Below are positions 2 through 1,990 of a DNA stretch of 4,324 nucleotides, in pieces. Source of the stretch: a virus (lineage: Duplodnaviria; Heunggongvirae; Uroviricota; Caudoviricetes); IMG/VR virus record IMGVR_UViG_2671180781_000004, positions 1-4,324 of that record, one strand, 5' to 3'. Position 1 is the stretch's first letter. Every line of letters begins with the position of its first letter. The notes under the pieces are model-generated. The model saw only the letters and a program-made list of their open reading frames with translations. It had not been told where the DNA came from and did not search any database. A program made the translations under genes and the position numbers.

Positions 2-454
2 AATCTGTTCGGTCTGGTCACCGGAATGGCGGAGGACCTGCAGAGCCTGGTGGGGGCCACGGTGGTCCGCCGCCGGGTGTATGCCCGTTTTCTGGATGCG
101 GTGAATTTTGTGGCGGGCAATCCGGAAGCGGACCCGGAGCAGGAGCTGAGCGACCGCTGGGTGGTGGAGCAGATGTCAGAGCTGACGGCCATGACAGCCT
201 TGTTTGTGCTGGCAACACCGACGGAGACGGACGGAGCGCTGTTTCCTGGTCGCATCATGCTGGCGAACACCTGTATGTGGGATTACCGGGGAGATGAATG
301 CGGGTATAACGGTCCTGCGGTGGCGGATGAGTTCGACACCCCCACCACGGATATCCGTAAGGACAGATGCAGCAAGTGCATGCGCGGGTGTGAGATGCGC
401 GGCATGGTGGCTAATTTTGGCGGTTTCCTTTCCATTAATAAACTTTCGCAGTAA
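2..454 (+). CDS. L: Tail tip assembly protein L (gpL-like), 5'-truncated by the window edge; C-terminal cysteine-rich domain present
   Basis: Open frame runs from the window edge (frame of nt 2) to TAA at 452-454. The translation (...MAEDLQSLVGATVVRRRVYARFLDAVNFVAGNP...NTCMWDYRGDECGYNG...DRCSKCMRGCEMRG...) is recognisable as the C-terminal part of lambda gpL, including its cysteine cluster. It lies immediately upstream of K, as in lambda. Confidence 0.9.
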   Translation, partial: NLFGLVTGMAEDLQSLVGATVVRRRVYARFLDAVNFVAGNPEADPEQELSDRWVVEQMSELTAMTALFVLATPTETDGALFPGRIMLANTCMWDYRGDECGYNGPAVADEFDTPTTDIRKDRCSKCMRGCEMRGMVANFGGFLSINKLSQ

Positions 455-464
455 ATCCCGGTTT

Positions 465-1208
465 ATGACACAGACTGAATCAGCGATTCTGGCACATGCC
501 CGGCGGTGTGCGCCTGCGGAGTCGTGCGGCTTCGTGATAAGCACGCCGGAGGGGGAGCGGTATATCCCTTGTGTGAATATTTCCGCAGAGCCGGAGGCGT
601 ATTTTCGTATCGCACCGGAAGACTGGCTGCGGGCAGAGATGCAGGGGGAGATTGTGGCACTGGTCCACAGTCATCCCGGTGGGCTGCCCTGGCTGAGCGA
701 GGCTGACCGGCGGCTGCAGATAAAAAGCGCACTGCCCTGGTGGCTGGTCTGCCGGGGTGACATTCACAAATTCCGCTGTGTGCCACATCTGACAGGACGG
801 CGCTTTGAGCACGGGGTGACGGACTGTTACACGCTGTTCCGGGATGCCTACCATCTGGCGGGAATTGATATGCCGGATTTTGAGCGTGAGGATGACTGGT
901 GGCGTAACGGTCAGAACCTTTACCTGGACAATATGGCGGTCACCGGCTTTTACCGGGTGCCCCTGTCCTCTGCACAGGCGGGCGATATCCTGCTGTGCTG
1001 CTTTGGCGCATCGGTGGCCAATCATGCCGCCATATACTGCGGCAACGGTGAGCTGCTTCACCATCTGCCTGAACAACTGAGTAAACGGGAGAGGTATTCC
1101 GAAAAATGGCAACGACGAACGCATTCAGCCTGGCGTCACCGCCACTGGCACGCATCTGCCTTCACGGGGATTTGCAACGATTTGGCCGCCGCCTCAGCCT
1201 GTATGTGA
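465..1208 (+). CDS. K: Tail tip assembly protein K (gpK-like), 247 aa, with an N-terminal JAB/MPN (JAMM) domain and a C-terminal NlpC/P60 domain
   Basis: ATG at 465, 10 nt after the L stop; TGA at 1206-1208. The protein starts MTQTESAILAHARRC..., as in lambda-type K proteins. JAMM motif H-S-H-x7-S-x2-D at residues 68-81 (nt 666-707). NlpC/P60-type Cys at residue 121 (TDCYT, nt 825-827) and His at 187 (NHAAIY, nt 1023-1025), followed by HH at 199-200. No obvious Shine-Dalgarno, so translation is probably coupled to L. The six-frame ORF starting at 204 is only the open frame extending back into L. Confidence 0.87.
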   Translation: MTQTESAILAHARRCAPAESCGFVISTPEGERYIPCVNISAEPEAYFRIAPEDWLRAEMQGEIVALVHSHPGGLPWLSEADRRLQIKSALPWWLVCRGDIHKFRCVPHLTGRRFEHGVTDCYTLFRDAYHLAGIDMPDFEREDDWWRNGQNLYLDNMAVTGFYRVPLSSAQAGDILLCCFGASVANHAAIYCGNGELLHHLPEQLSKRERYSEKWQRRTHSAWRHRHWHASAFTGICNDLAAASACM

Positions 1209-1786
1209 ACACGGCAGCGGAAGCCATTCGCGCCCTGTCGATGCAGATGCCGGGCTTTCGCCGTCAGATGAACGAAGGCTGGTACCAGATACGTATTCGC
1301 GGTGAGGACACGGCACCGGAGGCGGTGTACGCCCGTCTTCACGAACAGCTGGGTGAGGGGGCGGTCATCCATATTGTGCCGCGACTGGCCGGGGCCGGAA
1401 AGGGTGGACTGCAGATTGTGCTGGGGGCGGCAGCCATCGTGGGCTCTTTCTTCACTGCCGGGGCATCAATGGCGTTATGGGGTTCAGCCCTGGCAGCCGG
1501 TGGTTTTTCTGCCACCACGATGCTGTTTTCACTGGGGGCCAGCATGATACTGGGTGGTGTGGCTCAGATGCTTGCCCCGAAGGCTAAAGTACCGGAGTAC
1601 AAAAGCACGGATAACGGTAAACAGAACACGTACTTTTCCTCGCTGGATAACATGATTGCCCAGGGGAACCCGATGCCGGTGCCTTACGGTGAAATGCTGG
1701 TTGGCTCCCGGCGAATCTCTCAGGACATCAGTACCCGTGATGAAGGCGGTGGCGGGAAGGTCGTGGTTATCGGGCGGCAGAGGTAA
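1106..1786 (+). CDS. I: Tail tip assembly protein I (gpI-like), 226 aa; N-terminal ubiquitin-like (beta-grasp) region followed by a Gly/Ala-rich hydrophobic segment
   Basis: ATG at 1106, preceded by GGGAGAGG (1087-1094) as a ribosome-binding site; TAA at 1784-1786. The protein (MATTNAFSLASPPLARICLHGDLQRFGRRL...VIHIVPRLAGAGKGG...) is recognisable as lambda gpI. The start lies 103 nt inside the 3' end of K in a different frame, which is the same overlap geometry as lambda K/I. Confidence 0.9.
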   Translation: MATTNAFSLASPPLARICLHGDLQRFGRRLSLYVNTAAEAIRALSMQMPGFRRQMNEGWYQIRIRGEDTAPEAVYARLHEQLGEGAVIHIVPRLAGAGKGGLQIVLGAAAIVGSFFTAGASMALWGSALAAGGFSATTMLFSLGASMILGGVAQMLAPKAKVPEYKSTDNGKQNTYFSSLDNMIAQGNPMPVPYGEMLVGSRRISQDISTRDEGGGGKVVVIGRQR

Positions 1787-1826
1787 AAAGAATAAAAAAA
1801 TCCCGCAGTGTTGCGGAGCTGCGGGA
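1787..1826 (-). terminator. Putative rho-independent terminator for leftward (minus-strand) transcription, abutting the I stop codon
   Basis: Inverted repeat TCCCGCAG (1801-1808) / CTGCGGGA (1819-1826) with a 10-nt loop. On the minus strand the hairpin is followed by TTTTTTTATTCTTTT (complement of 1800-1787). On the + strand no T-tract follows it, so it is oriented for the minus strand only. Confidence 0.5.
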
Positions 1827-1956
1827 GAGTTACGAAGATTAACTATAGAGAATTATTCTTATGTCACGACAAAAAACATTAACGCAGAGAAATTATTAGT
1901 ACCACAGTCAGTTTGTGAAAATGTGAAGATATTCAGAATTTTTATTCAGTCATGAT
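1827..1956. other. AT-rich intergenic core between I and J with no credible protein-coding capacity; possible moron or small-RNA locus
   Basis: My hand count gives about 38 G+C in 130 nt (about 29%), against visibly GC-rich flanking tail genes. It is flanked by the two hairpin terminators. It contains short direct repeats: AGAGAATTATT / AGAGAAATTATT (1847-1857, 1886-1897), TGTGAA twice (1914-1919, 1922-1927) and TATTCAG twice (1930-1936, 1943-1949). Confidence 0.4.
1892..1919 (-). promoter_or_regulatory. Candidate sigma70 promoter on the minus strand: -35 TTCACA, 16-bp spacer, -10 AATAAT
   Basis: Read on the minus strand: TTCACA (complement of 1919-1914), a 16-nt spacer, then AATAAT (complement of 1897-1892). 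These match the consensus at 5/6 and 5/6. The predicted start would be near 1885, about 90-100 nt upstream of the minus-strand terminator. Found by eye in AT-rich DNA, so the false-positive risk is high. Confidence 0.3.
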
Positions 1957-1990
1957 ACAGGCATCCTCCGGGATGCCTGTTGTTTTTGTG
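1957..1990 (+). terminator. Putative rho-independent terminator on the + strand, ending 32 bp upstream of the J start codon
   Basis: Perfect 10-bp GC-rich stem ACAGGCATCC (1957-1966) / GGATGCCTGT (1971-1980) with tetraloop TCCG, followed directly by TTGTTTTTGTG (1980-1990). Confidence 0.65.

Follow-up and report, generated by a model that had tools for sequence, protein, structure and literature searches.

We analysed a 4324-base window, the whole stretch of DNA taken from IMG/VR record IMGVR_UViG_2671180781_000004, which is the tail-tip module of a lambdoid phage or prophage with the gene order L-K-I-J. Two of its genes are the subject here: K, which encodes a peptidase with a JAB/MPN+ (JAMM) domain and an NlpC/P60 domain, and I, which encodes a tail-tip plug precursor with a ubiquitin-like (Ubl) domain at its N-terminus. 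K and I are ordinary, intact tail genes of the lambda family, and as such are known biology and not a new system. Our preferred reading, to which we give a probability of about 0.6, is that in these intact tip genes the Ubl domain of I is removed from the precursor, and that the cut is made by the JAB domain of K at G96-A97.

Peptidase sites of K and the ubiquitin-type tail of I

The features of gene K are as follows.

465..1208, + strand: gene K, tail-tip assembly peptidase, 247 amino acids (aa) plus stop (open reading frame (ORF); Pfam Prok-JAB and NLPC_P60)
471..779, + strand: JAB/MPN+ (JAMM) metalloprotease domain of K, residues 3-105 (PF14464)
519..521, + strand: upstream glutamate of the JAMM site, E19 (Glu in 152/153 homologues, 1 gapped)
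666..707, + strand: JAMM zinc motif H68-S-H70-x7-S78-x2-D81, HSHPGGLPWLSEAD (from the translation)
795..1136, + strand: NlpC/P60 (C40) cysteine peptidase domain of K, residues 111-224 (PF00877)
825..827, + strand: NlpC/P60 catalytic Cys121, in GVTDCY (Cys in 153/153 aligned; 5 more sequences gapped)
1023..1025, + strand: NlpC/P60 catalytic His187, in NHAAIY (His in 158/158)
1059..1064, + strand: H199-H200 (H200 in 158/158; H199 is His in 151/158 and Gln in 7)

An earlier note on this DNA had proposed profile searches as a check on its domain assignments, and these recovered all three families, far above chance and well over their curated cut-offs. Prok-JAB (PF14464) matched K at 4.3e-16, scoring 59.2 bits where the cut-off is 25 and covering profile positions 3-113 of 114, NLPC_P60 (PF00877) matched it at 3.3e-13 (50 bits against 23; positions 1-105 of 105), and Lambda_tail_I (PF06805) matched residues 15-97 of I at 3.5e-16 (59.8 bits against 23.8). 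The JAB region of K lines up with the solved JAB protein 2kks_A, PAESCG and HSHP...S..D being in register, and it also gave a weak match to the NCBIfam 'desampylase' family, under the family cut-off. The NlpC/P60 region aligns with the solved NlpC/P60 hydrolase 9ubf_A, in which H187 falls on HVGIY and H200 on YHA. TIGR02219, 'phage cell wall peptidase', matched K weakly, at 25.6 bits and under its cut-off of 81.9.

Catalytic residues were compared across 153-158 homologues of K at a median of 43-47% identity; homologues across our loci as a whole stand at a median of 35-47% identity to the window. The complete E-x(n)-H-[ST]-H-x7-S-x2-D set is present at conserved positions (E19, H68, S69, H70, S78 and D81), with H68 and H70 in 152/153 homologues (1 gap) and S78 and D81 in all 153. 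C121, H187 and H200 stand in the canonical order of a Cys-His-(His/polar) triad, of which H200 is likely the third residue. Each of E19, H68, H70, S78, D81, C121, H187 and H200 is invariant in every K homologue aligned at that position. The complete JAMM signature and the NlpC/P60 residues Cys121 and His187, both pointed out in the earlier note, fall on invariant catalytic columns of a diverse alignment. None of the motif residues of K is misplaced, a possibility that the note had itself raised. Both peptidase sites are complete and under strong conservation, which suggests enzymes under selection, with activity as predicted from the sequence. For K, we infer the functional processing system that had been proposed.

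Translation placed K at 465-1208, I at 1106-1786 and all named residues where they had been reported. The features of I are as follows.

1106..1786, + strand: gene I, encoding the precursor of the tail-tip plug (also named tail hub internal protein), 226 aa plus stop (ORF; overlaps K by 103 nucleotides (nt), in the -1 frame)
1145..1396, + strand: N-terminal ubiquitin-like (MoaD/ThiS-type) beta-grasp of I, residues 14-97 (PF06805, AlphaFold 2 (AF2), Foldseek)
1379..1396, + strand: conserved beta-grasp tail P92-R-L-A-G96-A97, predicted processing site (conservation and hhalign)
1403..1408, + strand: Gly100-Gly101, within the short and variable Gly/Lys linker of residues 98-101 (shared with lambda)
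1409..1573, + strand: two Gly/Ala-rich hydrophobic helices corresponding to H1 and H2 of lambda gpI, residues 102-156, with predicted membrane insertion (AF2; PMC11101478)
1574..1783, + strand: C-terminal plug/anchor domain of I, residues 157-226 (8.2e-39 to the 90-residue gpI chains of 9e7m)

Full-length I matched the lambda gpI chains in 8iyk, 8iyl, 8k35 and 8xcg at 4.1e-96. An AlphaFold model built from a 67-sequence alignment gave residues 11-90 a predicted local distance difference test (pLDDT) of 94-98, with confidence falling directly after residue 92; a single-sequence model was unusable (pLDDT 42). When the beta-grasp of this model was compared with the PDB using Foldseek, the top matches were MoaD, SAMP1, CysO, ThiS, Urm1 and ubiquitin at target-normalised TM-scores of 0.66-0.76, led by MoaD 6jc0_A (E 4.9e-4, target-normalised TM-score 0.74). 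A PDB profile search with the Ubl alignment returned gpI homologues only and neither MoaD nor ThiS, so that the link to MoaD/ThiS needed hhalign and the fold search. The N-terminal beta-grasp that had been suggested for gpI is supported by this confident predicted model and its solved matches. The Gly/Ala-rich hydrophobic tail described after the Gly-Gly is also found, as the stretch at residues 102-156, where AF2 predicts helices at residues 101-129 and 134-156.

The end of the ubiquitin fold is where our results depart from the earlier note, which had placed the ubiquitin-type terminus at Gly-Gly 100-101. The pair is present, as I reads ...IVPRLAGAGKGG with G100-G101 at nt 1403-1408, but it is G96 and not this pair that the family conserves. 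Among 111 distinct tail variants from 163 loci, only 35 have GG at the offset seen in the window and 40 have no linker GG whatever, and G100 is Gly in 30 of 75 representative I proteins (40%). P92 and G96 occur in 111/111 variants, followed at position 97 by A (81), S (26), G (3) or K (1). The 75 representatives agree, with P92 invariant, G96 97% conserved and position 97 mostly A, S or G. Using hhalign, I-V-P-R-L-A-G96 was placed on I-L-P-A-V-A-G92 of CysO and F-P-P-V-T-G80 of MoaD, which end in the penultimate glycines of those proteins, and A97 was placed on their terminal glycines (the two reference sequences are identical to PDB chains 3dwg_C and 1fm0_D). The literal Gly-Gly 100-101 lies four residues downstream of G96-A97, the position homologous to the Gly-Gly of Ubl proteins, at which the second residue is A, S or G. 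Judged by conservation and alignment register, the ubiquitin-type tail of this family is P-x3-G-[A/S], with G96 as its conserved glycine. This narrows the target for experiments to an invariant P-x3-G-[A/S] tail rather than Gly-Gly 100-101, together with two separately mutable invariant sites in K.

To place the pair in its wider context, we collected 160 loci from viral contigs using two sub-family alignments of I homologues, and searched their ORFs with iterated profiles of four domains (JAB, NlpC/P60, Ubl and plug). A single ORF with JAB and NlpC/P60 domains lies directly 5' of an ORF with Ubl and plug domains in 152 of the 155 loci that had enough upstream DNA, and the two ORFs usually overlap, by 1-104 nt. 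Three loci have a Ubl-plus-plug I and lack a normal K upstream (L053 3776-4612, L075 3908-4576 and L129 2750-3067). The I homologue of L053 adjoins tip-fibre and glycine-rich genes, that of L075 adjoins a portal gene, and in L129 K is broken, with an NlpC/P60 fragment; the three may be remnants of rearrangement or true exceptions.

Proposed removal of the ubiquitin-like domain

Iyer, Burroughs and Aravind reported the pairing of a JAB peptidase with a Ubl protein in lambdoid and T1-like tail clusters in 2006 (PMC1779556), which bears out the earlier note in treating it as known biology. In their prediction, the Ubl domain of I is set free when the JAB domain of K cuts at its last glycine (PMC1779556); I was at that time thought to be absent from tails. 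Cryo-electron microscopy (cryo-EM) of lambda shows the C-terminal part of gpI as a trimer that plugs the lumen of the tip and holds the C-terminus of the tape measure (PMC10721106, PMC12617516, PMC11101478). In these structures gpI is resolved from residue 134/135 (PMC10721106, PMC12617516) or 101 (PMC11101478), and the N-terminal domain is never seen. The two hydrophobic helices of lambda gpI have been proposed to enter the outer membrane, and gpK was not detected in lambda virions. Virion proteomics of lambda gave a single gpI peptide with 9.87% coverage, a value that fits, by length, only the C-terminal tryptic peptide 202-223; this lone peptide lends weak support to a loss of the N-terminal domain.

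More direct observations come from a 2026 preprint on an F-pyocin (10.64898/2026.02.24.707460), in which N-terminal peptides of PA0640, the homologue of I, are absent from mature particles and present in assembly-stalled tips. PA0639, the homologue of gpK, is essential for the tip, with its deletion leading to tip-less tubes, and is itself absent from particles (10.64898/2026.02.24.707460). The 20-year-old comparative-genomics prediction that JAB trims the Ubl domain off a tail protein now has half of its experimental support, and the half in hand is domain removal, as seen in an F-pyocin.

Taken with the window, these observations suggest the following mechanism. I is a precursor of four parts: the ubiquitin fold (14-97) is followed by a Gly/Lys linker of four residues, the pair of hydrophobic helices (102-156) and the plug (157-226). 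As in its homologues, K would be needed for assembly of the tip and would not be carried in the virion. The ubiquitin-fold domain may cap the hydrophobic plug, keeping it soluble or shielding it sterically; this domain would be present in the immature tip and lost before or during tip-to-tube joining, as shown for the F-pyocin homologue. It would be the JAB domain of K that cuts, at or just after the invariant G96-A97, in a step resembling the JAMM trimming of ubiquitin-like proteins after their terminal Gly-Gly. By homology with the solved structures, three C-terminal copies of gpI in the tip lumen would then hold the C-terminus of the tape measure and block DNA exit until a receptor is bound, after which the gpI helices would insert into the outer membrane. 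A stricter version, for and against which we see about equal odds, makes the JAB domain of K the protease of a tail-tip "proteolytic checkpoint", cutting after G96-[A/S]97 only once the tip engages the tape measure and the tube, in lambda-like phages and F-type tailocins alike. If true, removal of a ubiquitin-fold cap licenses tip-to-tube joining in both kinds of particle, and the window holds an intact copy for testing this.

Several points weigh against a cut by the JAB domain at G96-A97. The F-pyocin authors call the cleavage mechanism unknown and leave the protease unidentified (10.64898/2026.02.24.707460). Recombinant PA0640 lost its N-terminal region in Escherichia coli without K, so that host proteases can remove this region (10.64898/2026.02.24.707460). 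The N-terminal domain of PA0640 also persists in stalled mutants (PA0633, PA0636 or PA0637 deleted), although these presumably still contain the K homologue; this would mean that cleavage is gated or that a different protease is responsible. A flexible domain that is never cleaved would fit the lambda data equally well. The predicted cut site is placed by homology, and a first resolved residue of 101 in lambda cannot separate 96/97 from 100/101. Our loci, moreover, were found with full-length I queries and are thus blind to I homologues that have no Ubl domain; when such homologues were sought, the short or odd I hits among the representatives proved to be chimeric assemblies with lambda-vector-like fragments.

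Both the trimming of recombinant PA0640 and the persistence of its domain in stalled tips would also fit removal of the Ubl domain by the NlpC/P60 (papain-fold) domain of K, or by host proteases, once the domain is exposed as the tip docks to the tape measure and tube, with a different substrate left for JAB. The NlpC/P60 triad is as invariant as the JAMM motif, and the papain-like fold of NlpC/P60 is common to most eukaryotic deubiquitinases (Iyer et al., PMC1779556). We give this alternative a small but real chance. The enzymes known to trim MoaD/ThiS-type Ubl tails are JAMM enzymes, the JAB-Ubl association recurs outside phages (PMC1779556), and an invariant G-[A/S] tail lying on the GG terminus of Ubl proteins resembles a specific recognition site and not a site of nonspecific clipping.

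It is also conceivable, if unlikely, that the peptidases of K do not act on I at all, the NlpC/P60 domain being a peptidoglycan peptidase and/or K being the protease that converts gpH to gpH*, with the Ubl domain a mere chaperone or shield. This idea draws on g14 of the gene transfer agent (GTA) RcGTA, a peptidase of the GTA tail module that degrades peptidoglycan and is needed for tail formation, and on the weak likeness of the NlpC/P60 region of K to TIGR02219; the protease that cuts gpH in its Gly-rich C-terminal region is, for its part, unknown. Neither gpK in lambda virions nor PA0639 in F-pyocin particles has been found, however, and a protein absent from particles cannot act on the cell wall of the target. 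For gpH, K acts before gpH joins in the classical lambda tail pathway, whereas cleavage of gpH follows tail assembly. The near-obligate adjacency of JAB and Ubl would, in addition, be left unexplained.

We consider it very unlikely that the lambda-type Ubl domain stays uncleaved and disordered in the tail lumen, with K a non-catalytic assembly chaperone. The cryo-EM papers do describe the N-terminal region merely as unresolved, and with a single gpI peptide in virion mass spectrometry the missing N-terminal peptides are weak evidence. Two catalytic sites that are invariant over deep divergence nevertheless argue for an enzymatic function, as does the stage-dependent loss of N-terminal peptides in the F-pyocin homologue for a cut. 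True ubiquitin-like conjugation, with a freed Ubl domain activated and attached to target proteins, has next to nothing in its favour beyond a beta-grasp with a Gly-bearing tail beside a JAB enzyme: the window, which encodes L, K, I, a small RNA (sRNA) and J, has no E1-type adenylating or E2-type gene, no extra ORF in the homologous loci matched the JAB, NlpC/P60, Ubl or plug profiles (these loci were not scanned for E1/E2 families), and the homologous terminal position is mostly Ala or Ser and not Gly. The K-I pair works like the precursor-trimming half of ubiquitin-type systems and is not a conjugation system. The description "ubiquitin-system-like" in the earlier note is apt for this protease-plus-Ubl half and goes too far for the window as a whole, with its lack of an E1- or E2-type gene.

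Gene starts, neighbouring genes and the I-J spacer

The remaining features of the window are as follows.

1087..1094, + strand: Shine-Dalgarno-like GGGAGAGG inside K, 11 nt 5' of the I start codon (sequence read directly)
26-454, + strand: L, 3' part (Phage_tail_L, 3.3e-59)
1787-2021: I-J spacer, AT-rich, 235 bp
about 1870..1794, - strand: predicted PasB homologue (3' end is a hairpin and U-run)
from 2022, + strand: J, first 767 codons (usual gpJ domains)

ATG 1106 is the sole in-frame start 5' of the nearly invariant G21, L23 and G27 of I, and the first two strands of the ubiquitin fold need it. Conservation, the Pfam match and the model agree that it is the correct start. Public annotations place the start of I at a GTG that overlaps the stop codon of K (window 1205), giving proteins of 193 aa for JLK-2012 and E2348/69 and of 190 aa for a resequenced lambda, and the first two strands of the fold are consequently lost from the annotation.

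A programmed -1 frameshift fusing K to I was also considered, prompted by the -1 frame of I, an A5 run before its ATG and K-I fusion proteins in databases, and was rejected. All of 161 loci have their own in-frame start 5' of G21 (exactly 7 codons upstream in 102), overlap lengths vary between 1 and 104 nt, with some longer still, and none of 163 loci contains a fused K-I ORF. Databases hold NlpC/P60-I fusions as well as chimeras that join the C-terminus of lambda gpI to unrelated genes (P0007, P0017, P0062, P0077, P0090, P0124-P0209). Such entries resemble frameshifted calls and assembly chimeras, for which lambda vectors may be the source, and not real architectures.

The lambda reference (J02459/NC_001416) has one base fewer near 14262 than the window (590-600) and than independently sequenced lambdas. 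The missing base puts the first 45 codons of K, the JAMM glutamate included, in another frame and splits the JAB domain between frames, from which comes the widely quoted gpK of 199 aa that has no JAMM glutamate. In the resequenced lambda PV340536.1, K is 744 nt (247 aa), the same length as K of the window. Either a mistake in the 1982 sequence or a frameshift peculiar to the strain probably explains the missing base. The listing of lambda K at 199 aa and of I at 190/193 aa are annotation errors that misled structural papers.

Stx1a- and Stx2a-converting phages and Escherichia phage JLK-2012 share 95-97% nucleotide identity with the window across its whole length. Its value for annotation is small, since what it offers is the standard tail genes of the lambda family, carried by a lambdoid, Stx-phage-like prophage. 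The cysteine cluster CMWDYRGDEC...CSKCMRGC in the C-terminal part of L (window 26-454) is consistent with the [4Fe-4S] site described for lambda gpL.

The I-J spacer (1787-2021) is 37% G+C, against about 60% in the flanking genes, and was found in 1662 of 5426 complete E. coli genomes, being unannotated among the matches listed. Rfam gave no match anywhere in the window at E up to 1, which ruled out AgvB, AsxR, Esr41 and STnc100 as its identity. The spacer aligns with the PasB locus of enteropathogenic E. coli (EPEC) E2348/69, whose flanking genes are the same two. PasB is an 83-nt Hfq-dependent prophage sRNA on the opposite strand (NC_011601 1466343..1466261; PMC8550237), and its published northern probe, AATCCCGCAGTGATCGCGGAGCT, agrees with window 1799-1820 everywhere but in the loop of the hairpin (PMC8550237). 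By this match and its position, the spacer is predicted to encode a PasB sRNA homologue antisense to the tail operon. On the + strand, a terminator-like hairpin lies at window 1957-1990, about 40 nt 5' of J, and reads ACAGGCATCC-tccg-GGATGCCTGT, then TGTTTTTGTG. Its stem is kept in E2348/69 and JLK-2012 via a paired change of T-A to C-G, and lambda has a different hairpin and T-run at the same place 5' of J.

Comparison with known systems

The plug domain of pb3 in phage T5 is trimeric and closes the lumen of the tail tip where gpI does; unlike gpI, it is an insertion domain of the hub protein, with no separate gene, Ubl domain or dedicated peptidase. RcGTA g14 is, like K, an NlpC/P60 peptidase that a siphovirus-type tail-tip module encodes and that tail formation requires. 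It has NlpC/P60 only, its 150 residues being too short to hold a JAB domain as well, and it degrades peptidoglycan and may sit inside the tail, whereas K is not in virions.

The pairs CysO/Mec+ of M. tuberculosis and SAMP/HvJAMM1 of archaea, the latter enzyme a desampylase, combine a MoaD/ThiS-type beta-grasp ending in ...P-x-x-x-G-G with a JAMM enzyme, and match I in fold and in tail register. In both pairs the JAMM enzyme hydrolyses the bond after the terminal glycine of the Ubl protein. CysO and SAMP are free small Ubl proteins, acting as sulfur carriers or modifiers with an E1-type partner, whereas in the window the Ubl forms the N-terminal part of a structural precursor, has no E1 and carries Ala or Ser at the terminal position.

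In the F-pyocin, PA0640 has the same plug architecture as I and keeps the tail I-V-P-x3-G-S, and the particle shows its C-terminal part only; PA0639 is, like gpK, an assembly factor not found in particles. The F-pyocin is the sole system in which stage-specific proteomics has demonstrated loss of the N-terminal domain; it is a tailocin and not a phage, and its proteins have low sequence identity to those of the window (E 1.4e-13). PDB entry 25vf is probably P. aeruginosa PA0640.

Lambda gpK and gpI are the TAPK and TAPI of Iyer, Burroughs and Aravind 2006. The window differs from lambda in its linker (Gly-Lys-Gly-Gly in I, Lys-Ser-Gly-Gly in lambda), in two more residues between the helices of I and three more at its C-terminus, and in an I-J spacer of 235 nt compared with 60 nt. 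The two share the L-K-I-J order and the 103-nt K/I overlap, with 84% identity for K (over 199 aa) and 69% for I, and they have the same catalytic residues, the same P-R-[LV]-A-G-A tail and Gly-Gly at 100-101.

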